A DNA stretch of 63,867 nt, filler included, from Klebsormidium nitens (lineage: Eukaryota; Plantae; Klebsormidiophyceae): the NCBI GenBank assembly GCA_000708835.1. It is 5 parts of 5 records of this genome, joined end to end, with 100 filler letters (N's around TTAATTAATTAA, not from the genome) between each part and the next. Parts side by side here need not be neighbours in the genome. Positions count along the whole stretch, not along the records: positions 1 to 14,890 come from DF238029.1; 4 more parts are not named here. One strand, written 5' to 3'. Positions 1 to 60,394 of this stretch are shown here, piece after piece. Each line of letters opens with the position of its first letter. Positions within the stretch are counted from its first letter, which is position 1. The position numbers and the translations under genes were made by a program. The notes under the pieces are model-generated. The model was given only the letters and a program-made list of their open reading frames with translations, ran no database searches and was not told the origin of the DNA.

Positions 1-700
1 ATTTTTGACGCACGTTCTTAGGTCGACCCCCTTTGATGACGTCAGCAGCCATTCCCCGCACTTTTGCTTGTGACTGATGGCGCGAAGGTGTCTGAGTGTC
101 CGAAGTTTTGACGCACGTTCTTAGGTCGACCCCCTTTGATGACGTCAGCAGCCACTCCCTGCACTTTTTCGTTTGTGACTGATGGTGCGACGGTGTCCAA
201 GCGTCCGAGTTTTTTAGGAGCGTTTTGAGGTCGACCCCCTTGGATGACGTCAGCAGCCATTCTATGCACTTTCGTCTGTGATTGATGGCGCGAACGTGTC
301 TGAGTGTCCGAGCTTTCGATGATCCTTTTGAGGTGGACCCTCTTTGATAACGTCAGCAGCCATTCCCTGCACTTTTCCTCTGTGATTGATGGCGCGAACG
401 TGTCCAAGTGTCCGAATTTTTCATGATCCTTTTGAGGTGGACCCCCTTTGATGACGTCAGCAGCCATTCCCTGCAATTTTCACTTGTAATTGATGGCGCG
501 AACGTGTCCAAGTGTCCAAGTTTTTGATGAGAATTTTCATGTCGACCCCTCTGGTGACGTCAGCAGTAGTTCCACCAATAATCCACTGTGATTGGCGGCG
601 CAAGGGTGTCCGAGTGTCCTAGTTTCCTGCTCGCCTTTCCCGTCGTTGCTTCGGGATGACGTCACCAACCATCCCCGACCAATTATCTGCTGCAACAAAT
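1..700 (+). repeat. Tandem array of ~103-bp degenerate units with a GATGACGTCAGCAGCCATTC core (left end cut by the window edge)
   Basis: TGACGTCA cores at 37, 140, 245, 348 (TAACGTCA variant), 452, 555 and 657, spaced 102-105 bp. Units also share GTCGACCCC and TGATGGCGCGAACGTGTC(C/T)GAGTGTCCGA. Confidence 0.95.
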
Positions 701-829
701 TATCACGCTCTTTTTGTCCTGACTGATGGAAACTAAGTTATTCATCATGAATTCTTTAAAACAGAAGGCTACTCAAGTCTTGAATTCGTCGAGAAGACTC
801 ACGTGCTTTTCGACCCGTTTCTCGTGCAG

Positions 830-1680
830 GGAATGGCAAAGGGGTCTGCAAGCAGATGCTCGAGACCACGCTGGGCAAATACTACGGCGGCATGTCCAAG
901 GACGCCGTGGTCAAGGCCCCCGGACAACGCCCGCCGTCCAAGGGCGCTGCCACGGGCTACCTCGCCGAGCTCCTGGGGAAAAGGGTGGCCGTAACGGACG
1001 AGACGAGTCCGGGGGAGCGCGTGGACCTTGGGCTCGTGCTAATGATGACCGGCGGGGGCAAGGTCACATCCCGGCTCCTCTACCAGAACAACGCCTCGTT
1101 CCGGTTCACCCACACGCCCTTCATCCAGACCAACTACGACCCCGAGATCCCCCCAACCCTGGCGAAGCAGCCCAACATCGAACGGCGCCTCATCGTGGTC
1201 CGCTTCCCAAACGAGTACGTGTCGGAAAACAAGTTCGACGAGACCAACCCCAGCCACAGGCACGTGGACGTTGGGCTGAAGGACCGGATGGAGACTCCAG
1301 CGGTCCGCGAAGAGTTCCTCACGTTTTTGGTCCAGGGCAGCCGGGCTTGGTACGAGGACCCCACGGTCTTGCGTCGGCACCCGCCGGCCGTCCAGGCGGC
1401 CGCGACGGCGTGGCTGCGCCGCGGAGACAAGCTGCAGACCTTCTTGCAGTCGGAGCACTGCGCGCACGACCTGGCGGACACGCCCGACAGCGCCAAGACC
1501 ATCACCTGGGAGGACGAGTTCTGGATGCGGTTCCAGCAGTTTGTGGCAGGGGTCAAGATCGCCAAGGAGGAGTTGGCGAGGCAGATGCGAGAGAAGGGCT
1601 TTGTGAGAACGAAGCGGGTTGGGCGTTTTGACGGGTCGTCCCAGCGGAGCTCCTGCTACGTAGGCTTCAAGTGCGAGTAG
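830..1680 (+). CDS. D5/P4-type superfamily 3 helicase, C-terminal part (Walker A remnant, Walker B, motif C, winged helix); probably a terminal exon or fragment
   Basis: The ORF 856-1680 frame extends upstream as (G)NGKGVCKQ, a Walker A remnant directly after a pyrimidine-rich CAG acceptor at 827-829. It also has VAVTDETS (Walker B), FIQTNYDP, IERRLIVVRFPNEYV and a C-terminal wHTH (LQTFLQ...GFVR...CYVGF). Confidence 0.85.
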
Positions 1681-2067
1681 GATTGATATCTATTGGCCCG
1701 ACGAGTCACTTGCTCGTTAATTAGACTTGGTTTGTTGGGTGAGGTTACAAAGTGGTCGGTCTTTGCCCCCTTCTGAAGAGCGCATAGATACTTCATCTTG
1801 TAACTTTATTGTTCTGCCTGATATTGTTAATGATGGTACAAGTCGGACCAATGTAATAGATTGACTTGAAGTGTACGAATCATCCACACTCATCCATGCT
1901 CGCAGTCCACGAATTAGAATGGTTTGGAGATGGCTTATAAACCTCATGAAGCTCGCAGTGCCAATCACTCAATCGACGAGATACTAAATGCATGTCAACG
2001 CGTGCTCAAATATGATAGATCATGATTGGGGCAAATGTCGAATGCCGGAATTGATGGCATGTAACTT

Positions 2068-2760
2068 GAAGTGTCCGAGTGTCCAAGCGTCCGAGCTTCT
2101 TAATCGAGTTTTCCGTGGTCAAGCGGGGATGACGTCAGCATTCGTACCACGTACCAAGTGACATCCGCGCAATGATGAAGGCATACCCTAATGTTCAACT
2201 CCGCGCAGCATAAGAGATGGGTAGAATGGCTGCTGACGTCATCCCAGCCCCGTCAGAGGATATTAGATTCAAAAGCTCGGACGCTCGGACGCTCGGACGC
2301 TCGGACACTTGTGTACGCCATCAATTACAGCAGAATTCTGGGCGGTTGAATGGCTGCTGACGTCATCCCAGCCCAGTTAGAGGATACTAAATGTAAAAGC
2401 TCGGACGCTCGGACGCTTGTGCAAAGAAGAATTCTGGGCGGAATGGCTGCTGACGTCATCGAGCGGGTTCGAGCTCAGAAGGTGCATCAAAAACTCGGAC
2501 ACTCGGACACGTTCGCCCTATCAACTACAGCGAAATTGTTGTCGGAATGCTTGCTGACGTCATTGAGAGGCTCCATGTCAAAAAGGTGCGTCAAAAATTC
2601 GGACACTCGGACACCTTCGCGCCATCAATCACAGTGGATTCTTGGTGGAATGGCTGCTGACGTCATGAAGAAGGTCCCACCTCGAAAGGTACGTCAAAAC
2701 TCGGACACTCGGACGCTTACAGTGCACGCCATTGATTGCAGCGGGAAAGTGGCCGGGATG
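2068..2760 (-). repeat. Second cluster of the same ~103-bp repeat family: one forward unit, then five reverse-complement units
   Basis: Forward GGGATGACGTCAGCA at 2126-2140. Inverted GAATGGCTGCTGACGTCAT cores at 2234, 2358, 2451, 2555 and 2658. The 8-bp subrepeat (GCTCGGAC)x4 is at 2275-2306. Confidence 0.92.
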
Positions 2761-2881
2761 GCCCATTTCCAATGGAGTGATTTAAGTCCAGATATGAATG
2801 ATTGATCGGTGCTATAGTACCCCAAGTGTTCATGGACTTAAGGAATCGTGGATTGCCATTTCATGATCATTCGGGTTCATC

Positions 2882-4328
2882 ATGGCAGTTCCTAGCGTAT
2901 CACCCGCCACACCCATGACGTCTTCAGCTTCTCCACAACTTTGGAAGGGAGATGGTGGTTGCTTCGTTTGCCTCGAGCGGCATGCAAACGAGTCGCAAAG
3001 CTGCGGCAAGAGCTTTGTATCAAAGCAAGCTTTGGAAGGCCACCGCAAGCGAACGGGGTGTGAGCCATGGAAGCTGCCAAGCGACCGCGCACCCTCCAAG
3101 TATCGCGGCATGGGGCCGGAAGCTGCTCGTCAATTGAAGCCGGTTAGCGACAGAGCGGCCGTGTCAAAGTACCGAACGACGCTTGAGGGGGAGCGGGCCG
3201 TCCACCGCGCGCGGCACATAGCCAAATACCGCCTCATGGCTTGCAGCGCCGTGCCCTCTCCCCCGATGCCCAAAGTACCCGCTTACGTGCGGCCACCCAT
3301 CTCGTGGCTCCTTGCAGATGCTGAGGTGTTCCCGTGGGAGCTCAAGGAGAAGTTCGACAGGGGCGAGATCGTGCTCAGCCACGCGACGTGGTCCCTGCGA
3401 TTTCATCCAGACAAGGTCCAGGTAGGGACTCAACCCGTTCGCCAGTGCAGCTTCGACTTCCATTTTGGGTCACCTGTGGTTAGGCTGCACCTGGCGGGCT
3501 AACGGATGGCCTGGGGGCCATAGGTACGCAGTGATAACTTTTGGGTATCTCTGCCTGTTTCTCGTACTTGATTTTGTCCATAGGTATGCAGTGATAACTT
3601 TTGGGTATCTCTGCCTGTTCTCGTCCTTCATTTTTTAAGTTGGTCTGGACCTAATCCTGCTGCTTGCCACAGGCACCCAGTGATAACTTTTGGGTATCTC
3701 TGTCCGCTTCTCATTTGATTGATGTATTCCGGCTTCGATTGTGTACTCAATTCGTGTACTTTCCTATTCAATCAAAGTACATAACCCAATAATCTAGTTG
3801 ATGGTGTACATTCCTCTGAAGAAGCTCTGCGTTCATCAATTGGATACACCCCGCTTCTAATGTTCGGGGTCCTCATCACAAGCAATGTACATCAATTGAT
3901 ATTCGTGTACATCATCCCTGATTGACTGCGGCATCATTTCCGAGCAGAGGAGGAGTGGGGAACATCTGCGACGATTCGTTGAACACTTCACGGGCTCTGC
4001 TGACGGCTTAGACCCGGAGCAAGCGAAGGCGTGCTACGCTACGGAGCTATTCGCCCCACTCAACGACGAGCGTTTCAAGCTCGGTCAGAGCGCTCAAAAG
4101 GCTGGTGGTATGTTGTGGAGAGCGTGGTTGTCAGTCGAATGTGCACTCATCGACGACTACTCCGAATATCTGGTCGAGTTTGAGGATTACTTAGCAAAGG
4201 TAAAGCAAGCGACCGAAGGGGTAGAACGGGCACGCGAGAGGTGGATTCGTGAGAGGCTAGAGGAAAAGTTCAAAAAGTCAAAGGCATATAGGAGATATAT
4301 GAACAATCGAAGTACCGAGCAGGAGTGA
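2882..4328 (+). CDS. Hypothetical protein with a C2H2/C2HC-like zinc finger; spliced model with exon 2882-3421, candidate microexons 3524-3544, 3584-3604, 3673-3693, and terminal exon 3948-4328
   Basis: Motif CGKSFVSKQALEGHRKRTGC. The CAG|GTAGGG donor at 3421/3422 and GCAG| acceptor at 3947 are both phase 0. The reading frame is open from 3948 into ORF 4110-4328. Confidence 0.5.
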
Positions 4329-4945
4329 TGAAGCGGCTATGTGCTATGGCACCTTGTGAATTTTCCTTGCGAACGATACCTCGAGCGTTTTCAATGGATG
4401 CAATCCTAGGTCACCGACCCCAGTCTCACTTTGCCATCATGTCCATGGATCGCTCTGTGCTCGAAAGCGCGCAATCATCAATCGTAAGAAGCTATCAACA
4501 GTTTGGATTGCTTGAAACCATTCTAGATACGGCGGCTCTTGGTGGCATGCGAGCTCTTACAGAGCCGTTCGACCTACGGCATATGACAAGAGCGCTCGTT
4601 CGGTCGCTCATCTCTGAGGGGTTCCACGCCTATTGGGATCGATCTGGCATTAACGGTCCGTACGCCGTCAAGGTGTCCTGGCGAACCGCTCTGAATAATG
4701 CAGCTCGAGCGCGACGTCGAGCGAGAAACTTGCGAATCTCAACGGCTCAGGCAAAGGAGCATGTTATGGCACTCGAGGTGTCTCCAAAAGATCGCACGAC
4801 GCCAAAGGCGGTTTCCCCGCCGTCCTCATGTCGTGCACCAAGCGTTGTGTGGGATGACGAGCCGGTTTTGGATCTTGAAATGATTGCAAATCGGGAAAAG
4901 GCTCGAGTTGCTCCCGAAGTTTCTGAAATGATGTCGCCCAGATAA
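4328..4945 (+). CDS. Hypothetical intronless protein (~205 aa)
   Basis: Long ORF whose ATG overlaps the upstream stop (TGATG at 4326-4330). No recognisable domain. Confidence 0.45.
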   Translation: MKRLCAMAPCEFSLRTIPRAFSMDAILGHRPQSHFAIMSMDRSVLESAQSSIVRSYQQFGLLETILDTAALGGMRALTEPFDLRHMTRALVRSLISEGFHAYWDRSGINGPYAVKVSWRTALNNAARARRRARNLRISTAQAKEHVMALEVSPKDRTTPKAVSPPSSCRAPSVVWDDEPVLDLEMIANREKARVAPEVSEMMSPR

Positions 4946-5212
4946 CATGAATGTGCCGAAATTGCCCATTTTGCAATTTCTGTACGACTTCAGTCACAGT
5001 ATCTGCGTTAGTATTATTTGTTAACAAAATGGAATGGCGATCTTGCTTTTTAGGCAGCTTCTACACGACCTCATAACCGTTTTCATTGTGAAAAGCTGCT
5101 ACGAACCTCCGTTTGATCCATTTGATTTTGAACAGTGATATTCATATTTTCTGGGCCTCGCAACTTTGGGGTGGTCGAAATTTTCTCGACATTATCCAGA
5201 TAACCAGAGAAG

Positions 5213-6268
5213 ATGCAAGATCCGGCTCAAAGCACACGGCATATAACTAGTGTAACTCAGGGTGAACGGCTGCTACGGACAATATTCGATGATGGCAGCC
5301 GAAAAGAGCTCACGGTTCAGCAGTATACAAAGCATGTTACGCGTCTGTTCCAAGGTTTCAAGAGGCAACAAGACTTCAACAACTTGGAATGGATCAGGGA
5401 TGCTGACGGGATCATCGAGTACTTTCAAGATACTTACCCCGAAAAGCTCTCCATGCAAGCCACTGGGATAACCCCTTTGCTCGTCGTGTGTAAAAAGCAA
5501 TTCTCCAATGACAAAAGGCTCTATGAGCGGTACTATGAAAGGTACACAGCGGTGCGCAAGCTCATGGATGAGTTGAAGCCACCCCCACAGTACTTAACGG
5601 AGCGCGAAGCCTCGAATTGGAAGACTTTGGACCAGATCAATGAACGCCGGGTGGAGTTGCAGAGGCACGTGAACCGAAAGATCTTGCACAAAAAGCCGGA
5701 AGAGTTGACCATCGAGGACAAGATCGTACTCATTCGCCATCTCATTTTGTCTCTGTACACTTATAGCCCGGCTCTCCGGAACGATTTCTCAGAGTGCCCG
5801 ATCATCCGCTTCGAGGACATCGGGTCCGCTGAGGCACGCGAGCTCATGTCCGGCTCCGGAAACTACATGTTGGAATACGAAAAGGGTCGGTTTCGGCTCG
5901 TTTTAAAGGACTTCAAAACGGTCAAACACCATCGCGAGACAAGCATCGACATGCCCCAGCGGTCCTGTAATGTGATTGCTGAAAGTCTCCAGGTGTTTCC
6001 ACGGAAGTATCTCTTGTCACGCATGAGGTCACCGGATCAGCCAATGAGCCGGAATTACCTGACCAAGTTCTGCTCGACCGGGCTCTTTAAGGATGCGGCC
6101 GTTGGCAGTTGCCTCTTACGAAAGATATGTGTCTCGAACGCCATGAAGGATGCCCCGAGTTTGCGAGAACGAGATGAATTGGCACAGCAGATGCTGCACA
6201 GTGCCTCTATTGCTCAGCGAGTCTATGAAAAGCACTATATGCCGGACGGAAGCAGAATCAAATTCTGA
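5213..6268 (+). CDS. Tyrosine recombinase/integrase of the type found in Polinton-like viruses, virophages and large DNA viruses
   Basis: 351-aa intronless ORF with catalytic residues in the expected order and spacing: PALRND (R), KDFKT (K), CLLRK (HxxR box with H->C), MLHS (H), RVYEK (Y). It also has NYML and PRKYLL...PMSRNYLT, which I recall as typical of this subfamily. Confidence 0.85.
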   Translation: MQDPAQSTRHITSVTQGERLLRTIFDDGSRKELTVQQYTKHVTRLFQGFKRQQDFNNLEWIRDADGIIEYFQDTYPEKLSMQATGITPLLVVCKKQFSNDKRLYERYYERYTAVRKLMDELKPPPQYLTEREASNWKTLDQINERRVELQRHVNRKILHKKPEELTIEDKIVLIRHLILSLYTYSPALRNDFSECPIIRFEDIGSAEARELMSGSGNYMLEYEKGRFRLVLKDFKTVKHHRETSIDMPQRSCNVIAESLQVFPRKYLLSRMRSPDQPMSRNYLTKFCSTGLFKDAAVGSCLLRKICVSNAMKDAPSLRERDELAQQMLHSASIAQRVYEKHYMPDGSRIKF

Positions 6269-6611
6269 GTATGATTGCTATTCACTCGATGTGCTCCCCA
6301 ATCTGGCAGGCGCTTCAAGATACTTCAATGCTCGTGAATGCGTTCAAAGTGAGTGGCCGCACATCAGTCTCGTCCAATGTGTCACTGGAGAGTGCCGTTT
6401 GAGGCACCTTAAAGCCGGCGTTTGCCAATCGGATCAGAGTTTGCTTATGCAGCTTTTTTGTGTTGCCCGAGAGGAGTCTTTTGTACGCTTTTTGCATAAG
6501 GATGGTCTCCCGATTTCGGATATAGTGGTTTCTAACGTTCATTGCATGCTGTGCGTGGTGCGATTTTTGATATGAACGGCTTGTTTCGCACACGCGACAG
6601 TGACATGATGG

Positions 6612-9530
6612 ATGGGTCTCAGTTTCAATCGAGAGACTCGTGTTTTGGACCTTAACGCCCTACAATTGAGCTTCGAAAGAAAGTCGTACGAGAACGCGGA
6701 TGCCGAGGCAGCGCGTTTCAATCGCACCAGTTTTCTTCTTGACAAGGGTATAGACACCATGGCCACACTCGCAGCTGCTGGACCCAGCGCCTCAGGACCC
6801 CAGCCCACCGTGACTCGAGGGTCCAGAGCCCAGGGCCCCAAGAGCATCAGAGACGAGATCCTACGGCTTCGCGATGCTGGCCTGTTTGCGGTACCGGTAC
6901 GCATGTTTTGGGATCACGGCAAGGATAAAAAGGATGATGAAGGGAGAATAGTCAGACCCGCAAGAGCCAAAAAAAGCTGCTCAGCATCCAAAGTGGGCGG
7001 AGATGACGACTCCAGAGACGTGGAAGACCGCTTTCAATCGCGTTATGGGCGAAGTTCCAGGCGCAAATGGGATTGCGATATTGACGGAGGCTAGCGGCAT
7101 CATGGGTATTGATATTGATGTCACCGGCGATAACGAGAAGAATCCAGGAACTGAACTTTGGGATCGAATGGTCGCCCTCCATGGAGAACCGGACACACTG
7201 AAGGCTAAAAGCGGATCGGGTGGATTCCATTATTACTTCAAGGCGGACTCGCCGGGCCTCAAATGCACACAGAACTTCTCGACAATGAAGGTCGACGGCA
7301 AAAAGTTTGCGATGGATGGTCGTGGCATTGGAGGGCTCATGTACGCGCAGCCGTCAAGCTACATTGATGGTCAAGGTAACCTTAAGACGTACATGTGGCT
7401 CAACGGCCCGCCAAGCTACGACGCGTGCAAACTCATGCCTCCATGGTTGATAGAGTTGGTAAATAACAGTAGCGGCGAGCGTGCGGAGGCAAGTGGCACT
7501 AAAAGCAAAGGGGGTTCGATTAGGGCGTCTGTGGTGGAGCTTGACCGCACCGATCCCTCATTGGCAAGCCAATCGACTGGTGAGTCTCACGAAAGATCAG
7601 GGGCAGTTGAAGAGGTGAGGGAACTGCTGAAGAAAAAATCAAAAGACGATACAGCACACTACGGGGGTTTGACGCTGCTGCCAGAAGGTAACCGTTCCTT
7701 CCAATTTCGAGTTGGCGGCCCAAGAGTGTGCTATCTGGGTCGGGATCACAATGGTTCAAACAACTTTACCGTGATCCAAGGCTGCACTGGAAACTTTCGG
7801 CAGGTGTTCTATCATTGTTTTGGCACTGCTTGTCAAGGTGACGATATACGGCTCCTTGGAGAGTTGAGCATCTCGGCCGCTCTGGAGGGGGTTTCGGCGG
7901 ACGAGTTTGGGATCCGAGACAAAAGAATTACCAGCGAGGGCAATCTGGAGGCACGATTGCCGGCGGCGTTCATGAGAGAGATGGTGTGCAGGAGCGATTT
8001 TGGGGCGGCATCGATCTTTGCCCGCTTGTTTCAGCACGATCGGCGGATTGTGTACGATGCAGGAAGCTTCTGGATATGGGACGGACGGTCATGGATTGCA
8101 CACGAGACGGAAGCAACGGTTAAGAGCGCGTTCATGTGTCACATGGGCAAGGTGAAGGCCTTTTGGGTGAAGCGTATTGCGGGTGAGGGTCGTGAAAAGG
8201 TTCTCGAGGCAGAGCGCGCACGAGACGCCAGCTTGGCAAAGCTCCACGATGCAAAGCAAGATGCTCGATCAAGGAGGAGCGCCGAGACGGCCATCCAGAG
8301 GGCATTCAAGGCCTTGGAGAGGGACGCGGATCATCTCGCAAAGTGGTTGGGACCGGACGTCGAATCATTGCCAATCGCAACTCGATGTCTCACTCCACTG
8401 CAATCTATGTTGAAGCTTGATGGTTTTGCAAAGAAGCTGAACGCAAGTCGAGACCATCTGAACACTACGTCGGGCGCAATTCATCTACCAACAGGCAAGC
8501 TCACACCACATCATCCGAGCAACATGCTATCTCGAGAGACGGATACGGAGTACGTCGGGCCCGACTATCCGTCACCGTTGATCAATGAATTCATGCTGCA
8601 GATTCAAACTCCGAAGATCATCAAGGTTCTCCAGATGACGCTCGGCTATGGCATCACTGGACATTCGAGGGAGAAGCAATTCATCATATGGCACGGGCCC
8701 TCCAACTCGGCCAAGACGAAACTTCTTGACCTTGTAAGAGCTGCCATTGGGGTATACTTTTGTACAATGGATCGCGATTGCGTGATCGGGGCTGGGGTGA
8801 GATCCGAGGGTGCTGCTACACCGCATCTTGTGAAGCTCGAGGGCGCACACATTGCCGGTCTAGAAGAGACAAAGCCAGAGGACGTGTACAATGGAGCCAA
8901 TGTCAAATCCATCTCTTCAGGAGAAGGAGCCATGAGCGTAAGGCAATTGGATAAGCCACCGATCGACATCAAATGCCGTTGTCTTCCAATCATTTGCACG
9001 AACTCGTTGCCCAAGTTTGACGTGAAAATTCGGGAACGCTGAAGAAGCTTCGGGTGTTTCCATTCAAGCGAGAGTTTGTTGAGAATCCGAAGCCAAATAC
9101 CAACCAACGTTTGATTGATTATCACCTTTACGAGAAGATCCAGAGCCCCGAATGGCGGAAGCAGATGCTTGCTTGGCTCGTGAGAGGGAGCATGGCGTAC
9201 TACGAACGAGGGAGTCTGCCACGGGTGGAAGAGCTGCCAGAAGACATGCAAAAGGCTCTCAACGGGTACATAGATACCAACGATCATCTTCAAAGCTTCA
9301 TCAATGATCATTGCATGATTGGAGATCCACAAATGGTTGTGCATGTGGATGTATTGAAGCAAGCATTCGAGACGTACGTAGGCAGGCGCGATCGTCCCAT
9401 GACCGTCACCGAGTTCAAGACGCTAATGGTTGGCGTGAAGGGCGTTTCGTTTGCAAAGCAGATCAAGATTCGACAACGTAACACGACTGGCTATCGAGGA
9501 ATTGCCCTCTTGGAATGCTATGAGGCCTAG
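6612..9530 (+). CDS. Bifunctional primase-polymerase (Prim-Pol/AEP) + Zn-binding domain + D5_N + SF3 helicase + wHTH; split by two single-base frameshifts (~6969-6975 and ~9024-9028)
   Basis: AEP motifs GIAILT...GIDIDV and KSGSGGFHYYF. Zn module CYLGRDH...YHCFGTAC. D5_N IVYDAGSFWIWDGRSW. Walker A-like GPSNSAKT (8695-8718), Walker B IAGLEET, and motif C IICTNSLP. The frames join as ...RA|KKAAQHPKWAEM and ...KFDV|NSGTLKKLRVFPF. The true start may be the ATG at 6760. Confidence 0.88.
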
Positions 9531-9590
9531 GAGGCATCTTTGCGTGAACCCAATGGCATATAATTTGTTGCTTGAGGGTCGGAGCAAGGG

Positions 9591-9933
9591 GGTAGGTAAG
9601 GTAGGTAAAAGGTAGGTGCCTCAAAAACGTGTGTTTTAGGGTCATACTATGGTATGATTATTATTAAGGTAGGTAGGTTGGTATATAATATATACTATAT
9701 AGCATGTGAAATTTGACACGGTAGATGAACAAAAAAGACATCATACAAGAAGACGAAAGGTGTCTACCCACCTACTTGACTACCTCAATAGCAAGTCTAC
9801 CGATCTTCCAACCCTTTTATTACCAATTGCTGATCGTCTACCACCCTTGTTGAGCCACCTACCAGCACAAAGCTCCGCAAAGTAAGGATCAAAAATCGCC
9901 CATATATCGTGTGCTATGTACAAGACACCTACC
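9591..9933. other. Candidate iteron-type replication origin: convergent pentamer clusters around an AT-rich core
   Basis: GGTAG on + at 9591, 9600, 9611, 9668, 9672 and 9720. CTACC on + at 9764, 9780, 9797, 9838, 9859 and 9929. AT-rich stretch TATATAATATATACTATATA at about 9682-9701. The functional call is inference. Confidence 0.4.
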
Positions 9934-12900
9934 CTATCTCTGCAATAGCCAAGCACGCGTTCCGCCCGTCCACACGGCCACCGCAATTGCAATGCTAAGC
10001 TTTCCGTCATCGACCCGCTTCAAAGAGCTATTGTACCCTCCGAGCAGCAAAGGCAGGATCACCATCAAGCTCTCAAGCCCCGAGTACCACCCCAGAGACC
10101 GGAACCCCTTGAGGAAGGAGTTGACCGACTCCACGGCGGACGTGTTCACCCAGTGCAAGGAGCTGTAGCTGTCCGGAGAATTCGTCGGGCCGCACTTGTG
10201 CACCTCCGAGCCGGCCTTTGAAAAGTGAAACCTGTTTATAAAAAGGTGCACATCAGTTTTCATGGCCACCATCACTTAGAGTACATACCTGATCATATTA
10301 TCTCAACAGTGTACATTAACCTGCAAATAGTGTACATTACCCCGCAAATAGTGTACATCACTCTGCAAACAATGTACATCACTCATAATTCCATCTAGAT
10401 TGAACACGGAATGTACACGAAATGTTGCACAACACACTGCAATGTAACCAGCATTTGTGGCTTTGCACAAGAGAGTCCACCGCAATCACCTCCCAGTGCT
10501 CACAAGCCATTCGAGCGTCATTGCAACATCAGACCAGTTGCCTACCTGTCAACCACGAAACGCACGTCTCTGAAGAACGCCGGCTCTCGCCGCATGGAGT
10601 AGTTGCGCAGCGCACATGCGTTGTCGTGCACCAGCACGTCGGGCAGGTCCTCTCGTCTCAGCCGCGTGAAGAGCACGACAAAGGCGTCCCTTGGGCTCTC
10701 GCCGCGTAGCATGATGTGGAAGCCGTAGATGATGCGATGCGGACAACAGAACACGAATGCTCCTCGAGTCCTCTTCGGCCGCTTGCTCCCACTCCCCTTC
10801 TTTCCCGAAAGCTTTCCGGCACCCTTGACGAGTCCGGGAACGTTCTCGGCGTCCCATTCGGTTACCGTCTTTCCCGTTGCGCATTTGAACTCCTCCGAGG
10901 TTCGGCTACGGCCGTCCGGATGCTCGAACGAGCTGTGCCACGGCACCCCCCGTCTCTGCTCCCAACCCGGAAGGGTGTAGCACGCCAACTCGTCTTGCTC
11001 CGCTCGAAAGCTGTGCTCGGTTTGCAGCGGGGGGCGCTCCTTTCCATTCTCGTCCCTCCCAAGTCGTTCCCTCAAAAGTATCCGCTCTGCCGCGCTCATC
11101 CGCCCCCACTGCTCGGGACTCGGCTCCAACCTCTCGACCCCTGGGAGCAGCTCGTTTGCCAGCCCTCGCACCTCCTCCAACTGCTGGCCCTCGTCGATGG
11201 TCAAGGGCCGCACTTTGCCCTCAAAGAGCAAAAAGACGGCTTGGTCGAACGGGTCGACCGCCTCGTGCACCCAGCCCCGCCGTCCCTCGGCCTCAAAACC
11301 CGTTGCACCCCGAGCAAAGAGAGCGAGGAGGTAGAGGTGGTAGAGCGTGCGCGTGAAGAAGGCCGGAAACGTGAGGCCCCCGTACGCGTCAAGGATGCGT
11401 CGCAAGATGGGCGCGTCCCTTGCCAAGTCCCGCCGGTCCTCGAGGGATGCGTCGCCGCCGAGCAGCAACCTCCGGACCACGTGCAACGCCCCGCTGCCAA
11501 TGAGGTCTTCGTCGGCGTCATGCGCGCCCAGAGAGTAGAGGAGCTCCGTCCACTCGCCGACCCAGTGCTCCCAAAGGTCTGGGCTCAACCCTCGCCTCTC
11601 AAAATCGGCTTGGACCCCGGTCAGCAACTCGAACACGGCCCGATTGCGATCGAGAACCATCGTTTGTTGTTCGTCTAGCATGCGCCGTCTGCCGTCTTCC
11701 GAAAGCGGCCCCTCCGCCTCCTCAGGACCCCCGAAGCGCTTTACGATCGTCGCGTCATCGTGGGCCAAACCGGCGAGGAGCGCTCCAAACTCCGCCCTTG
11801 ACAGCGGTTCCCCGACCTTCTCGTCCTTGGGACGGTGCCGCGACAGGCGCGCAATCGCCACTCGCAACTCGGGCTGCAACAGAAGCTTGCGCTTCATTCC
11901 GCCCCCCTCGAGGCCGGCTCCACAATAGTCGCGCCCCGAGATCGACCGCTTCTCGAGGAGCGCGCCGGACGCGTGCCGGCTCGGATGGGTGAACGTGCGG
12001 CGTGCGTCGAGCGAAGAGCTCCCCAGCCCCCCAGGCTTCTTCGCGCCGTCCGTGCTTGCCAACCCCACGATCCCATCGCAGAGGAGGATCTGCAGCCATC
12101 CAAGAAGGCTTTGTACATCATCAATAGATGTACACTAACGTCCAACCAATTGGTCACTACAGATGCCCTCGATCGTGTACATTAACATATATGTTGATAT
12201 ACACAATCACACGTCCAGATTCGTGTACATCATCACATATGATGAAGTGGGGGTATGGACGGCCACGCAATGTCTTTCACCTCTTGTGCTCCCAATGAAG
12301 AGCCATGGTTTGTGGAAGGAATGGGACAGCAAAGACGGCACGGACGCCAGAATCTCATGTCCAAGTTGCGCCAAAGTCCAGTGGGCCTCAAAACTCACCT
12401 TGGGATGAGGTCCGCACAACGAGCAGCAGTCTCGAAGGCCGAGGCCGACCAGCTTGAAGAAGTCGAGACTCGCACGGCGCCACGTCTCCTCGCTCAAGAC
12501 GGCAGCATCAGGCGACCATTGAAAGGCCGTCTGATGGGTCGCGAGCTCCGCCTTGAAGCTGTGCCCATGCTGCATCCCCCGCAAGAGCAGCTGAAGACTT
12601 TGTTGCACGAAGAGGGTCCGCCGGTTCCACGCGTACAGCCCAAGGTGCTCGCCGTCAAAGTGGATTGCGTGCGCCTCATCGAGGCATTGGCAGTGGTAGA
12701 TCCGCACCCGCACTCGCTGGCTCCATTGGGAGGCCGTCACGTCGGCCTCGGTCCACGCCTCTACCCAAGAACCGCCACACGCCGGCGACTCGAGGGGGCA
12801 GGGCGCGCTTAGGAGGCCCTTCTCCGACAGCTCGCGAAAGTGGCAATCCCTCAACTTGCTCACGGGAACGGGGCTGTCTAGCGAGGCCACCATGGGGTCG

Positions 12901-14335
12901 TGAACGGCGTGCGAGTCACTTGGCCGAGCGAGTTTGGGCCTTGTGACTTGGGCCGCTTCCGTGGTGAGCAGCTGGACGGGGGCTCGAACCCTCGAGGCCT
13001 TGCCGTGTGCACAACCCTCCCGCGCCAAGGACGCCACAGTGCAACTCGTGCACGCATCGACCCAACCTCTGATTGCCTCTTTCCCCCTCGCATCCGCTGG
13101 CGGTCGAGCGCCCCACCCTTCTTTCGGCGCCGGCTGAGAGCCTCGCTTGTGTGCCTCCCAGAAAGCCTTGTTGCGCCTCGCCCGTTTGCGAGGAGGCACG
13201 TGATCCTCCTCAGCCGCCTCCGCTCCCCTGGGCCTCGACTGCTCCTGGCATTCTTCACGTGTGCGGCGGCCTCGCCTTGCTCGCTTCCCTCCCCAAAGAG
13301 TCGATCATGCTGTCGACAAAAGCATGAGTCCCCCGCGCACGCCGCTCGCTCGTGGGGCCGCCGCTCCAGTAGCTCGATGAGGTACCGCTCCTCCTTCGAC
13401 AGCCCGTCATCATCTCTTTCTTGCGAGGGGGGTCCCACGGCGGGGGTTTTTCCAATCTTTGGCAACTCTCCGTTCCACGCCTCGAGCCAGTCCAGCGCAG
13501 CCTCCGACAGCGGCTCCAAGAGCCTCAGAACCATCTGGTCGGCAACTGGAAGGTCTCCCTCATTCCTCAGAGCTCCCTTTGCCGCCATGACGTGCGAGCA
13601 GTCGACGAGGCTTGGACACCCGTCGCGCTTCCCCTCGCAATACCAACCCCCCTTGCTGCTGCGAAAGACCATGCGCCTCTGAGGGCTTGGCGGTCTTTGG
13701 AGGTTGTCGGCCACCGCAAAGTAGCTCCCCGTCTCGTCGGAGCCAACCCGCTCCACCCTCGCCCCCCTGCCGAGCGACTCGTGGGTAGGAAGCTCCGCCG
13801 TCGAGGCCCAACTCTTGCTGAAGGCCGCCATCGCCAGCTTGTGGACGCAAGGCGCGTCGCCCATGAGCCGCCCCCGATCGCACGTACAGCAGAGCTCGCC
13901 GAGCGTGCTCCACCAGACCGTCTCTGGGAGCGCATGGATCTTGGATGGCTTCCCAAGCCCTTTTGGCCGGCCCTCCCCATTGTGATCCCATGCCGTCATG
14001 TAGAGCCTAAGCGGGGGGGATGCCGATCCCGTCGGCAAGAGGACGCGAACCGATTGCTCTGGAGCCGTCATCAGCACGAGGCAGCGCAACGCCTGCTCCT
14101 TGATGCCCCTCGCCAGAGGACTTGCTGCCCCCTGCAGCACAAGGTGGAAGCACCTCGTTCAGAAGGACCTCCTTGCCAATGTGAGGCAGCCGCAGGACGA
14201 TGGACCCCTTTGAATCAGTGTCTCTCGTTTCGAACAATCGAGACACCTTGTGGCCACACAACTCAGAGTCGTTGTGGAGCAACTTTAGCAGAACCTTGAA
14301 CTCTCTCCCATGTCGCTGTCGGCGACTCGCCCTTG
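9934..14335 (-). mobile_element. KDZ (Kyakuja-Dileera-Zisupton)-type DDE transposase gene with SWIM and CxC domains; spliced, with one apparent frameshift near 13200-13305; 5' end uncertain
   Basis: SWIM-like CTCDRGRLMGDAPCVH and a Cys-rich CxC region. Intron 12090-12398 joins CSLCGPHPK|ILLCDG (first D). Then FCCPHRIIYGF...GESP...VHDNAC (second D). Intron 10232-10545 joins VVDR|FHFSKAGSEVHKC. NTSAVESVNSFL supplies the E. Confidence 0.85.
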
Positions 14336-14464
14336 CTATATAGCACCGATGGCAGCGCGCGCGAGCTGAGCAGAATGAGATTGATGCACACATTTTTGTT
14401 GTGACTCTTATCAAGAAAAAGTGTTTGGGAGCTCACCTCAGTGCTCGTCTCCTCCACAGCTCCG

Positions 14465-14890
14465 AAAGTACTTACTTCCCGACACAGCATCCAGTAAATC
14501 GTCAATCCTGGGGATCGTACAACGATTCTTTACTGTAATGCTATTTAACGCTCTGTAATCGACACACAGTCGAAGTCCTCTGCCATTTGGCTTTGGAACA
14601 AAGAGCACAGGTGCACCGTACGGAGACGTAGAAGGCTCCAGAATTCCATCACTCAGGAATTTAGTGACCTGTTTTTCCAACTCGCGATATTCCAAAGGAG
14701 ATAACCGATACATCGACCTAAAAGAAGGTGGATGACCTGGCTCCGTAGGAATCGAATGCCCCTCAGATCTGACAGGTGGCAAACCAACCGGAAAAGGATC
14801 CTTGAACACGTCAGAATACTCAGTCAACATTCCAGCAACCCAAGAAATATCACTTCCTGGTGCTTGTTGAACAGACGGTTGCGCGAATTC
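14465..14890 (-). pseudogene. Ty3/gypsy reverse transcriptase N-terminal fragment, 3'-truncated and cut by the contig end
   Basis: YSDVF...LPP...YRLSPLEYRELEKQV...STSPYGAPVLFVPKP...LRLCVDYRALNSITVKN...PRIDDLLD; homology stops abruptly after SKYF. Confidence 0.93.
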
Positions 14891-14990
14891 NNNNNNNNNN
14901 NNNNNNNNNNNNNNNNNNNNNNNNNNNNNNNNNNTTAATTAATTAANNNNNNNNNNNNNNNNNNNNNNNNNNNNNNNNNNNNNNNNNNNN
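14891..14990. other. Artificial contig linker (44N-TTAATTAATTAA-44N)
   Basis: Identical 100-bp structure at all four joins; TTAATTAATTAA places stop codons in all six frames. Confidence 0.97.
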
Positions 14991-18810: not shown

Positions 18811-21800
18811 GGTGGGACTCAGGGGACACTCCTGCAGCGGGCAATGGACGCGGGTGTCAGCAACAGGGGGAGACGGGGGATGCAAGACCACACACATCTC
18901 CACGTGATCCCATTTCCGCGTGCAGCCAAGGCTGCAAGTCTGCCCTCCGGAGGGGTGTTACTGCCCCCCAGCCTGGTGCACGGCTGCAAGGAGCCCCCGG
19001 GCACACGCGAGAGGGTCCACTTGTCCACTGCGCAGCACTCACCCTCAGTACATGGTCTTTCTCATGGCCGCATTGGAACTTTGCGCTATGAGGCTCCCTG
19101 AGCCAGCAACTGCACTGCACACGAGTGGCCACACGCAGCGTCCTGCTCCCTTCGCCTGCACGAAGTGTGCCACTAATGCCCCTAAGCTAGCGCGTGGCGC
19201 ACTGCTGCGTCATGTGCAACTTCACTGGTCTTGATATGTTCCGTGCTGTAGCTCTGCTACAATCTGCTACAGCTTCGAGAAAATCCAAATAAACCCACTG
19301 TGATTGACACAGATCTCTGTTCCAATTGTTCCTTGGGATGTTCCTTATCAACCTTCGGATCTAATTCCTGCATTGTACAGCCAGCTGGGCCCCAAAGCCC
19401 CCACCCCAGCTCCTTGGATGCAGGCGGTCAACACCTGAACCGTAGGCCGCGGTGCAATAGCAACACGTTAGCAGAAAGCATCCGCTGTGGTTAGGCCAGG
19501 GACACAGACTGCCGCATGTCTAAGCCACAAAGCAGCATCAATCCACCTGTAAGATAGCACCACTGTTGGAGCCTGCTCCAACCCAACCCTTGCCCCGACA
19601 CAAGCACCTACTACACACCTGCTAGAGTCTTGAAAGGCGGGTAGGACAATGGAAGCCTGTGGCTCTCAAACTCATCTCCTCATCAAACCTCCACTCTGAG
19701 AGCAATATCTGACAGATACTACGGTATGCACTCTGCCGTGGGCTCCCCCTATGAGCTGGCTCCTCCGCTGTTTCCGTGCCCAGTGGGCTCGCATCGGCAG
19801 CACATGCAGGCCAGGATTCGGCACACCAACACATCGTTCACGCGCTGGTTTCCGAATTAGGTAGTTCGTCATTTCATTCCCATTCAAAGCACTGGATCGC
19901 GGCGGAAAAGAAGGTGGAAGCCGGCTATATGCGGTTAGTAACATAACTCGAGTACGATACCCTGCATTCGCAAATAGCACGCGTAGGCAGTTCTGCGTTA
20001 ACCCACAGTTATGTCAGCCAGGATATATCCCTGTGAGTACGTTGTGATTTTCCACGTACAAGAAAATGAAATGCATGGTACGCGTGATCAAGGTGCCGCC
20101 ATCAGCTGCCCACTGCCCTGGCAACTCTCGTATGAGGCGTGACACGGCCCACGGGCTCGTGAGTCGTGACACCTTTGCCCGGACGATGGGTGGGCACTGG
20201 GGTAGGACTAGGTACCGGTACTTCCTACGGTAGGTGGTTAATATTGGGTCGCCTGGAGCACGGAGCGCTGTCGTTACGTTTCGGTTAGGTTTTCGGTTTT
20301 ATATGTGCCCGGGGAAGCTCGAATGTTCGGTCACACGCCCGTTATAACGGGCGCAAACTTCGATCCTTCAGGTGTCACGCGAAAATTCCCAATCATTCTG
20401 TCCGCTGCCCGTGCAGAGTGACTAGGTACCTACCTACCTATTACGGTAAAGTGGGCACGCAATTCTACCGTATACGCTATACGGTAGGTACATACCTACT
20501 ACATACCTATGCGTAGCGCAGGTGGCAGGTACCGTCGTATCCAGAGTCGCAATGGTGTACCGGTAGCAGTGGGAAAAATGATACCTAGGTACCGGTGTCA
20601 GCACCCGTGGCCCGTGGGAGGAGAAAATGGCCGAGTCGGACCATGGTAGGTATATTGTACGGTGGATGGACCATATTGGACCCCCTACAGTGCAGTATGC
20701 ACATAATATCTACGTTGCGCGCGCGCCTGTAAAGACTGCTAATACTCTCCTGGTCACCCGGTCGCTTGTCTTTGATGTACCTACTCATAGCCTCACGTCT
20801 GCGCCTCGGTGAGGATTCCGTTTTGGTCGGTCAACAGCAATAATAGGTACCGGCCTGCATGAACGATGCGGTATGATGCTCGCGGCAGCCCTCCGAAGCT
20901 CGCGCACTGATTGCCAGCCAACAATGAGAGGTAGTAGGGGGTCAAACATTGGCAGTGGGGGACCGGGGGTCCAGACTTCAGAGTCCACCGTCCACGACTC
21001 CACGCGTTCGGAGTCCTTCAGGCTTCCAAGTTCCAATGTCCATGCTTGCACGGTTTCAGGTTTTGTCAGACAGTAGTGCGACAGTGACGCGTCAGCAACT
21101 TGCGGGATAACCGATCTATTATGACACCTATTATTTGCTAAATGATATAGGTACCTGTACCTGGATACCGTGCACACAAGTACCGTAAAATGAATGCACT
21201 GCGCACTGAAACTTGAGTAAGGTACCGATGGGCACGAAGTTGAACGACTCACAGCTCAGGGCAGTCAGATTTTAAGAAGTTAATTTTACGGGTACGGTAC
21301 GTACAGGACCCTCGTACACGAACTCGGATCAGAAGTTCAAAACCTACGATTTGGAGGTTGAGTACGGTAGCGTTACGGTAGTTAGTGCTCCCAACAATGC
21401 CGTACGGTACGGTCGACTTTCAAGGTCGAAACTTCGAAAGCCCTGGGCGGCTGGGCCCGGGCGGCAGAGTGCCCCCCGGGCTAAACGCCGTAGGTACTGC
21501 CAAGTTTCTGGGCCACCATAACCTCGAGGCTACGATACGAGGTACCGTACTGCCATTGTTATTCGCCCCCCAAGCTCGCGAATAATTATTTTCAAAGTTT
21601 TTAACATTTCGCTCCGGCCAGGTGAATTTATTTTTATTTTCGTTATTGCAATTTTGCCTGCTAAAATAGCTGTTTTGGGCCCAGAAAATCCGGTTTATTC
21701 ATGTCAATCTTTCGCACCGGGCAGCAAATAATTTCTGGAAATTTTCGCCGAGGCTGAAAATAATTATTTTTAGGCGAATTCACAATGGGAGTACGGTAGG

Positions 21801-22536
21801 TGACTCCCGGCTGCATAGGACCTAGCGAAGGCGCAGCCCCGATGCTCAGAGGCAAGCCTCACGACAACGAGACGAGCCGTACACCGCTGTTCAATTATCA
21901 TCTAGATTCAAATCCCGAAGGAGTAGTGCCAAATTTTCGGGATACGAATCTCAATGACCGCCGTAATACCGTATGCTCCAGTGACCACTGGTCCCAGTGC
22001 CTACCCGTGCCTACCCGTGCCTACCGGTGCGACTGCAGAACTAAATATATGTCCCCGATCAGACTCAGAACACGGGCCCCGGGCCCCGGGGCCATGTAAA
22101 GTTTAAGTTGCGTACGGTTAAACAATGTAATAATGTTATAACACACTCGGTGGCAGACCTCTGACCGACTACAGTTTCCACTACCGGTATGTAGGTATAC
22201 GGTATACCTATTCAAAATCGGCAGGTTGCTCGGGAGAAGCAACAAAACGATAAACCTGGTATACGCGGGTAACTTGTTGCTTGACCCAATCGGTGCCACT
22301 GGCCAGGCTATCGAGTAACCTACCAGGCAGGAACTAGGTAGCACCTACCTGGTATGATGATGATATTACCTAGGTAGTACCTACCACTGTAGGTGGGCAC
22401 TGGGCAGAACAGTTGCAACTTGCAACTTGCGGCACGAATCTTCAAAAAGATCCAGGTGTCATCATTGCTCTGAAAATCAAAACTTGAGGTACTGCCAACC
22501 AATCACATCGCTGATAAAGATCGGGCGGCAGTTCAG

Positions 22537-22636
22537 NNNNNNNNNNNNNNNNNNNNNNNNNNNNNNNNNNNNNNNNNNNNTTAATTAATTAANNNNNNNN
22601 NNNNNNNNNNNNNNNNNNNNNNNNNNNNNNNNNNNN
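22537..22636. other. Artificial contig linker
   Basis: 44N-TTAATTAATTAA-44N. Confidence 0.97.
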
Positions 22637-51890: not shown

Positions 51891-51990
51891 NNNNNNNNNN
51901 NNNNNNNNNNNNNNNNNNNNNNNNNNNNNNNNNNTTAATTAATTAANNNNNNNNNNNNNNNNNNNNNNNNNNNNNNNNNNNNNNNNNNNN
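51891..51990. other. Artificial contig linker
   Basis: 44N-TTAATTAATTAA-44N. Confidence 0.97.
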
Positions 51991-53189: not shown

Positions 53190-53880
53190 TCCTCCCATTA
53201 TTCCGCGGAATATAAGGAGGGAACCGTATTACATATATTACACGGTTTACGGTTGTTTCCTCTTCCTCCCTTTTCTCCGCGGAATATAAGGAGGGAACCG
53301 AAACGGAAGAATCCCGGTTTTGTGACTTAGAATTCTTCAGCTTTTCTTTCAGGGGCATACTACCCCGATTTCGGCCTTCCTCTTCCTCCCTTTTCTCCGC
53401 GGAATATAAGGAGGGAATTGAAACGGAAGAATCCCGGTTTTGTGACTTAGATTTGCAGTTTTCGTGAGGGCTATACTAGCCAAAATTCGCCCTTCCTCCT
53501 CCTCACTTCTCTCGCCGAATTTTCGGAGGAAACGGAAAGCTACAGTTGCGACGGTTTTATGACTTCAAATTTTATGTGCTGTTTCCTGGAGGGGTATACT
53601 ACCCTAATTTCGGCCTTCCTCCTCCTCACTTCTCTTGCCGAATTTTCGGAGGAAACGGAAAGGGAGGAACGACGGTTTTATGACTTCAAATTTTATGTGC
53701 TGTTTCATGGAGGGGTATACTACCCTAATTTCGGCCGTCCTCCTCCCCTTTTTTCTCGCCGAATTTTCGGAGGGAACGGAAAGGAAGGAACGACGGTTTT
53801 ATGACTTAGAATTTATTTTGCAGTTTCCTGGAGGGGTATACTACCCAGAATTCGGCCTTCCTCCTCCTCCTTTTTTTCGC
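53190..53880 (+). repeat. Tandem repeat, ~121-bp units, about 5-6 copies
   Basis: The unit GGGGTATACTACCC.AATTTCGGCCTTCCTCCTCCTC...GGAAACGGAA...CGGTTTT.TGACTT recurs near 53370, 53486, 53609, 53730 and 53851. Confidence 0.92.
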
Positions 53881-54420
53881 CGAAAAGAATGAGGAACCCG
53901 AAATGAGGAGGGAAATGAGGAGGAGGAAGGGCCGAACAACCCTGTATATGGAGAAAAAAGCATAAAATTACAAAGTAAAAAAACAAATCAGGATTTCGGG
54001 GTCCCTTTAGGTGGGTTTTCAACCGTTCCTCCTCCTCCTTTTTTTCGCCGAAAAAAACAAGGAACCCGAAATGAGGAGGAAAATGAGGAGGAGGAAGGGC
54101 CGAACAGCCCTGTATACGGAGAAAAAAACATAATAAATACAAAATAAAAAAACAAATCAGGATTTCGGGGTCCCTTTAGGTGGGTTTTCAACCCTTCCTC
54201 CTCCTCCTTTCTCTCGCCGAAAAAAGGGAGGAGGAGGAAGGGCCGAACAGCCCTGTATATGGGAGAAAAATACATAAAAATACAAAATATAAATAAAAAT
54301 CGTAATTTCGGGGTCCTTTATACAGGTTTTCAAGTTTCAACTCTTCCTCCTCCTCCTTACTCTCGCCGAGAAAAGGGAGGAACCCGAAAAGGAGGAGGAT
54401 GTTTTATGCAGCAATTGAAC
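53881..54420 (+). repeat. Tandem repeat, ~144-168-bp units, about 3 copies, containing the inverted core of the preceding array
   Basis: GAGGAGGAGGAAGGGCCGAACA.CCCTGTATA recurs near 53920, 54088 and 54232, with shared GATTTCGGGGTCCCTTTAGGTGGGTTTTCAAC. Confidence 0.9.
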
Positions 54421-60294: not shown

Positions 60295-60394
60295 NNNNNN
60301 NNNNNNNNNNNNNNNNNNNNNNNNNNNNNNNNNNNNNNTTAATTAATTAANNNNNNNNNNNNNNNNNNNNNNNNNNNNNNNNNNNNNNNNNNNN
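60295..60394. other. Artificial contig linker
   Basis: 44N-TTAATTAATTAA-44N. Confidence 0.97.

Follow-up and report, generated by a model that had tools for sequence, protein, structure and literature searches.

A tyrosine recombinase, a frameshifted primase-helicase and a candidate iteron origin in Klebsormidium nitens: possibly a stranded end of an endogenous Polinton-like virus

The stretch of DNA analysed here (the window, 63,867 nt) derives from the alga Klebsormidium nitens and consists of five joined scaffolds, the first of which (positions 1-14,890) carries a compact module composed of an intact tyrosine recombinase gene, a twice-frameshifted primase-helicase gene and an array of short facing repeats. 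All statements on absence refer only to these 14.9 kb. We give about even chances to the reading that the locus is the stranded replication-and-integration end of an endogenous Polinton-like virus (PLV) of a Klebsormidium-type alga. Three points make it the likeliest of those considered: the host genome has PLV capsids, the search for element ends came up empty, and the replicase is no longer functional. According to this scenario, a PLV end would have been left among transposons with an intact recombinase, a broken replicase and the facing array as its predicted origin, and the capsid half would once have been located on the recombinase side. Judging from sequence, the host of the locus is a Klebsormidium alga, and the K. 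nitens protein KFL_010800030 (NCBI) is 99% identical to the main primase piece.

Results

The replicase gene and the facing repeat array

The replicase gene is read in three pieces (6759-about 6974, 6952-9024 and 9021-9530), with one frameshift in the A-run at 6968-6974 and another near 9021-9027. The Prim-Pol (~6997-7446) and D5_N (~8008-8604) domains reach the Pfam thresholds, the Zn motif (7729-7833) and the SF3 Walker motifs (A at 8695 and B at 8857) are in place, and a winged helix is predicted at ~9285-9510, the C-terminal fold matching both the PrimPol of African swine fever virus (ASFV; E 6.6e-4) and RFX winged helices. Among solved structures, ASFV C962R is the closest, together with the SaPI5-type 7ola and poxvirus D5. 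The co-oriented Prim-Pol/Zn/D5-SF3 gene that the first-pass annotation had placed directly downstream of the recombinase is therefore correct in its domains and their order, but the gene is not intact, and a minus-strand open reading frame (ORF) of 75 aa lies in between. Both breaks recur without any difference or gap in contigs of the sequencing runs X1 and X2, possibly of the source sample, and assembly errors were rejected as the origin of the frameshifts. A programmed frameshift at the A-run is unlikely, since in the relatives P0186 and P0183 a single frame continues through the two positions.

As the gene is frameshifted twice, no full replicase can be made from this copy, and the capsid-less state, self-replication and helper dependence envisaged in the first-pass annotation are conjectural. 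This copy would be replicable only with a replicase from another copy, and the recombinase, with its intact reading frame, could still be supplied by it. Domain identities cross over between relatives: the Prim-Pol domain is 71% identical to P0186 and 40% to P0182, whereas the SF3 domain is 33% identical to P0186 and 65-74% to P0182/P0183. By these identities the replicase is a domain mosaic, and domain mosaicism has been reported for polisuvirus replicases (10.64898/2026.10.13.758929). Identity to phage and plasmid primases reaches only 22-30%, the viral-contig scan returned no primase locus and GTDB no close relative, while a search for shorter primase pieces, covering 30-216 aa only, found 1 protein.

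The iteron-like segment that had been noted immediately after the primase is well substantiated and is the strongest element of the observation. GGTAG occurs at 9591, 9600, 9611, 9668, 9672 and 9720, and CTACC at 9764, 9780, 9797, 9838, 9859 and 9929, six sites facing six without a single one on the wrong side. These 12 sites compare with at most 8 for the best 5-mer in 500 shuffles, and the polarity score of 12 with a shuffle maximum of 5 (reached by 0 of 200 shuffles at the observed value), also when the motif is freely chosen; overlapping windows of the array rank 1st and 2nd of 606 by polarity. Furthermore, when the scaffold is scanned in windows of 60 bp, GC content is lowest (25%) within the array. 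SaPI origins contain 6-12 penta- or hexanucleotide iterons that closely follow rep, flank an AT-rich centre in two oppositely directed halves and are bound by the C-terminal winged helix (PMC9371898). Because its position, symmetry and AT core fit an origin, the array is likely the replication origin of the module, and the predicted winged helix of the replicase may be the domain that binds it. A point against an origin is that the putative last exon of the neighbouring KDZ-type (Kyakuja/Dileera/Zisupton) transposase gene stops at 9934, abutting the array. A stable hairpin formed by the array was considered and rejected (z -1.06).

The recombinase

In the recombinase, five of the six catalytic residues are present. 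In an alignment to 18 distant relatives, R189, K235, R303 and H329 are invariant and Y338 is shared by 17 of the 18, while the position of the HxxR His is occupied by C300 here and by S/N/T/W/G/C in all 18 relatives, never by His. Of the intronless recombinase with an essentially intact catalytic set, as originally described, the intact reading frame was confirmed, but the set is short of one residue that is replaced family-wide. The protein itself has no Pfam match. Its identity as a tyrosine recombinase follows from the weak Phage_integrase matches of two of the 18 aligned relatives, from ESM Atlas neighbours that are viral clusters at 0.97-0.98, and from the N-terminal domain, which aligns to core-binding domains (top VIA rows nearly all of the tyrosine-recombinase family, Z 9.3-7.5). 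A Foldseek search of the structural model, whose catalytic half has pLDDT under 50, gave no PDB match at E 0.001, with Cre and Xer ranked top; against BFVD, the best matches include Pyramimonas orientalis virus, Tetraselmis virus 1 and the Harvfovirus integrase. A profile search of PDB with the recombinase gave no match.

Among 1,482 candidates, 28 relatives share 50-81% identity with the recombinase, and the 50% library yielded 765 with E no higher than 0.001. In a FastTree of 87 rows, the fourteen of Klebsormidium type group in a single clade with support 100, and the family occupies 32 JGI contigs told apart by size. Two metagenome-contig scans revealed no recombinase locus, no phage match was obtained, and the viral-contig scan returned no locus of the close family. 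The recombinase is probably of the PLV/virophage type, OLV11-like, a label taken from papers, with OLV11 itself unaligned. Cryptons have a Crypton-type recombinase as their sole gene and short terminal direct repeats; in this regard, the recombinase studied here has no Pfam match and its nearest Atlas clusters are viral, Crypton sequences being outside the comparison.

Linkage, copies and element ends

Read depth was taken from contigs of runs X1, X2 and X5, of which X1 and X2 possibly represent the source sample, and X5 is guessed to be RNA from another sample. In X1, the summed depth is 274 and 196 for the recombinase, 33-117 for the primase, 22.5 for the array and 13-17 for the self contigs, summed contig depth being a rough guide and no copy number. 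Paralog contigs bridge from the recombinase end to the small-ORF stretch (joint 6228-6394) and from there to the primase start (joint 6734-6878). Both genes are Klebsormidium-type multicopy families. X5 has no cover over 4447-8892, which says nothing on expression.

The first-pass annotation had allowed that the two genes might never co-occur elsewhere. This does not hold, as 4 of 10 JGI primase relatives lie on a contig of exactly the same size as that of a recombinase relative (47072, 12487, 23917 and 26126 bp), a count that leaves out the distant JGI primases P0190, P0193 and P0194, the distant recombinase P0032 and all non-JGI rows, and that comes from primase searches without proteins of 217-381 aa. 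Of 200,000 trials under the null model, 744 produced one match and none produced more. The two gene families thus appear linked elsewhere, where the same size implies the same contig, not adjacency or absence of a capsid. In one of the four matches, the recombinase partner (P0203) is only 27% identical to the window recombinase. In addition, one K. nitens gene model (P0044) joins a recombinase piece to a DUF5906-type helicase.

The ends, att sites and circular junction envisaged for the element did not emerge: neither ends nor att direct repeats or cores nor an empty site were found at the locus. Both flanks of the module are other elements, and an end may be lost. The sole candidate circle junction, a back-joint from 10337 to 3905, contains 23 foreign letters, is located within TGTACA repeats and was rejected as a repeat artefact.

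Viral relatives and the capsid question

In IMG/VR, 21 loci hold distant relatives of the recombinase. A Pfam virophage major capsid is present within the fetched flank of 5 of them (68 of 213 ORFs scanned), and a co-oriented primase-helicase is located within 1 kb of the recombinase in four (L007, L008, L016 and L020). L007 and L008 have both the capsid and the adjacent primase-helicase, L007 in the order recombinase then Prim-Pol/D5, plus capsid genes. Putative PLV capsids picked by eye in 8 of the 21 loci are unconfirmed and were left out of the count. In the L007 virophage contig (7854-8819 and 14233-14520), a ribonucleotide reductase small chain was observed near the recombinase, and a switch from G-rich to C-rich sequence just behind the primase-helicase may mark an origin.

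When the 213 IMG/VR ORFs, which include virophage and putative PLV capsids but no cluster-86 capsid, were searched against the window, only the recombinase and the primase matched, with the exception of a weak match of 48 residues within the KDZ gene. Neither a minor capsid protein nor an A32 packaging ATPase was detected on this scaffold, at limited sensitivity, and there was no polB match. The described lack of capsid, ATPase and polB was thus reproduced, yet the contig it referred to is a single 14,890-bp scaffold within a joined window. In K. nitens, seven PgVV-group capsid loci (cluster 86) have been published (PMC10120064). PLV end modules have the order repeats - primase-helicase - recombinase (PMC11296320). 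Across polisuviruses, recombinases are accompanied by AEP/PolA replicases (10.64898/2026.10.13.758929), and among the information-processing genes of PgVV-like PLVs none is more frequent than the recombinase (10.1101/2022.07.28.501842). Capsid-less PLV fragments are common in Halocafeteria, another protist (10.64898/2026.07.28.741278).

Neighbouring features

The features of the window are listed in Table 1. Besides the module, the 14,890-bp scaffold includes the KDZ-type transposase gene, a Ty3-like fragment and a second D5 fragment, the last flanked by arrays of a 104-bp repeat. The KDZ-type gene is multicopy and apparently contains introns, with TGTACA-rich putative introns at 10281-10412 and 12112-12225; a putative intron of the zinc-finger gene (3777-3907) is TGTACA-rich in the same style, and the zinc-finger ORF and ORF A are possibly one spliced gene. 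ORF B has no family match and no usable ESM Atlas match, and library searches with the 75-aa ORF gave no family match. No repressor, excisionase or packaging-interference gene was detected in the module by PHROGs or NCBIfam, nor any att site; there is no Rfam match on 1-14890 and no AAAATTGA promoter near the module.

Table 1. Features of the window, with positions counted along its whole length
Feature	Position	Strand	Remarks
C2H2 zinc-finger ORF	2882-3502	+	left neighbour of the module
ORF A	about 3948-4328	+	left neighbour; stop overlaps the ORF B start
ORF B	4328-4945	+	205 aa; repeated in the genome by depth; element membership uncertain
Tyrosine recombinase	5213-6268	+	intact intronless ORF, 351 aa
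Small basic ORF	6315-6542	-	75 aa, function unassigned; between the recombinase and primase genes
Primase-helicase pseudogene	6759-9530	+	Prim-Pol/Zn/D5_N/SF3/winged-helix, in three pieces
Candidate replication origin	9591-9933	no strand	six GGTAG, then six CTACC, facing; AT-rich core ~9641-9745
KDZ-type transposase gene	9934-14071	-	CxC4 match, E 2.5e-4; right neighbour, outside the module
Spacers N44-TTAATTAATTAA-N44	14891-14990, 22537-22636, 51891-51990, 60295-60394		separate scaffolds; neighbours across spacers unlinked

The second D5/SF3 helicase (~826-1680) is 5'-truncated and shares 29-33% identity with the main primase's relatives; its GC content at third codon positions is 0.89, and its flanking 104-bp repeat arrays are in opposite orientation (20-566 and 2429-2714). 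No facing array of the kind described above follows it. In X5, 83-87% paralogs of this fragment and of the 104-bp repeat have a depth of ~90-1,300 per listed contig and sum to 5,484 in one bin, the KDZ gene having 1-23; the region 20-2714 is possibly a D5 element that is highly expressed or present in high copy. Other observations concern a Ty3-type reverse-transcriptase-like fragment on the minus strand at 14438-14830 (recognised by eye, X1 depth 84,421), a Ty3-type gag gene on the plus strand at 57470-59785 with Ty3_capsid and Retrotrans_gag matches, and tandem arrays at 53257-54381 with units of 121, 168 and 143 bp and a common CCTTCCTCCTCCTC core.

Discussion

Several findings weigh against a stranded PLV end with the array as its origin. 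Neither capsid nor penton nor ATPase is present on the scaffold, including the 5.2 kb on the recombinase side, and no terminal inverted repeat was found, matches between 2800-5250 and 9520-10000 being 11 bp long at most. The seven capsid contigs published for K. nitens all differ in length from 14,890 bp (PMC10120064). Depth, though no copy number, points to a number of recombinase copies above that of the seven capsid loci. With only ~20-25% identity to the window proteins and a position outside the Klebsormidium clade, the viral relatives do not show what this clade sits in. With regard to the array, GGTAG/CTACC also clusters, in mixed orientation, in helicase-free DNA at 20.2-22.4 kb (a non-coding stretch, 20200-22400, where GTGCCTACCC is tandemly repeated at 21997-22030 and nothing resembles a helicase or recombinase), and no comparable array was found in six viral stretches behind primase-like or other large genes (L004, L007, L008, L009, L010 and L016).

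Alternatively, the locus could belong to a capsid-less, self-replicating integrative family, in which a PLV end module would leave the genome as a circle, replicate from an origin of its own and integrate again, whether or not a helper virus is involved. We regard this as possible but the less probable of the two. The same-size contigs of 4 of the 10 primase relatives, the paralog contigs keeping the order recombinase - small ORF - primase, and the single, fully supported clade of recombinases on 32 JGI contigs are all in its favour, as are P0044 with its different helicase, the apparent excess of recombinase copies and the capsid genes missing beside the recombinase; autonomy of such modules has also been proposed, and called speculative (10.64898/2026.10.13.758929). 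However, no ends, att cores or empty site were found, 6 of the 10 primase relatives and 28 of the 32 recombinase contigs have no size match, the matches themselves show neither adjacency nor capsid absence, the back-joint is not a circle junction of this copy, and PLV capsids do exist in K. nitens. The fragmentary-PLV alternative raised in the first-pass annotation has also gained some ground, as the same adjacent pair occurs in capsid-coding virophage contigs and in the PLV end module of the literature and the host has seven PgVV-group capsid loci, and a PLV remnant is now slightly more likely than a capsid-less element. It is accordingly a tentative proposal that Klebsormidium harbours a family of escaped PLV end modules, each with a recombinase, a swappable Prim-Pol/D5 replicase and an iteron origin, as a eukaryotic counterpart of PICI/P4 satellites; as part of the same proposal, such capsid-free modules would spread alone or be carried along by giant viruses or by the PLVs resident in the alga.

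A fragment of a giant-virus (Nucleocytoviricota) insertion carrying such recombinases and extra AEP-SF3 genes is improbable: several giant-virus inserts are known in K. nitens (PMC5294986), the Foldseek matches of the recombinase model to Pyramimonas orientalis virus, Tetraselmis virus 1 and Harvfovirus agree with it and so does ASFV C962R as the best solved replicase relative, but the scaffold has no giant-virus core gene, the neighbours are KDZ and Ty3 transposons, and a compact gene pair with an array fits small elements. Equally improbable is that the module is cargo of a KDZ-type giant transposon, the array being a KDZ subterminal repeat. The module does lie between the KDZ gene and a zinc-finger gene sharing its intron style, and Plavaka-flanked, recombinase-rich giant repeats of Amoebidium offer a precedent (PMC11244446); on the other hand, depth is close to single-copy in the bin of the array (22.5) and 215 in the KDZ bin next to it, the position, symmetry and AT core of the array fit an origin, and no KDZ terminal repeats are defined. 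Chance neighbourhood in repeat debris has the lowest probability of all, since, dense as the scaffold is with unrelated elements (the second D5 fragment, 104-bp repeats, KDZ, Ty3), it is largely refuted by the linkage in 4 of 10 cases, the bridging paralog contigs and the same pairing in viruses.

In the literature searched, there is no description of the Klebsormidium family or of iteron origins in PLVs, and both the replication start of PLVs with AEP-SF3 replicases and the movement of capsid-free modules are treated as open, speculative questions (10.64898/2026.10.13.758929). With this locus, a culturable alga that branches near the base of land plants provides a candidate origin of 340 bp together with the domain predicted to bind it. 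Should the capsid-less reading prove true, the mobile elements of eukaryotes would gain a new class; otherwise the locus is a provirus end in decay whose origin is informative nonetheless.

Compared with known systems, the module resembles the end module of PLVs and virophages (PgVV-group PLVs, Gezel-14T, CBEV_PLV1, AHEV_PLV2) in having a recombinase beside an AEP/D5-SF3 primase-helicase (PMC11296320, PMC4642659), repeats beyond the helicase, a mosaic replicase and PgVV-group capsids in the host lineage. It differs in that this scaffold lacks capsid, penton, ATPase and terminal inverted repeat, the replicase is broken, and in place of a long inverted repeat there are short pentamers that face each other across an AT core. 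The Plavaka giant repeats of Amoebidium likewise hold intron-poor tyrosine-recombinase genes beside a Kyakuja/Dileera/Zisupton/Plavaka-group transposase, but a primase-helicase or origin is unmentioned in the accessible part of that work, and the recombinases are likened by description only (PMC11244446).

Transpovirons are comparable as small capsid-less replicons tied to giant viruses. They possess an SF1 helicase. Unlike the tyrosine recombinase and Prim-Pol/D5-SF3 found here, they have been described with pPolB and DDE (10.64898/2026.10.13.758929). From SaPI/PICI and P4, the module is separated by its eukaryotic host, the named relatives being K. nitens proteins, and by an integrase of a eukaryotic-virus clade. 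The alpha-ori1 of P4 has the same kind of layout as the SaPI pri-rep-ori. With the SaPI/PICI pri-rep-ori (SaPI5 PriRep5, PDB 7ola), the module shares a fused primase-SF3 helicase with a C-terminal winged helix, a tyrosine integrase and, in layout only, iterons just downstream that are split in opposite directions around an AT centre (PMC9371898). What endures of the originally proposed PICI/P4 analogy is therefore the arrangement of integrase, primase-helicase and origin and not membership: judged by this arrangement, the module works like the integrase-replicase-origin module of SaPI and P4 but is not a member of those families.

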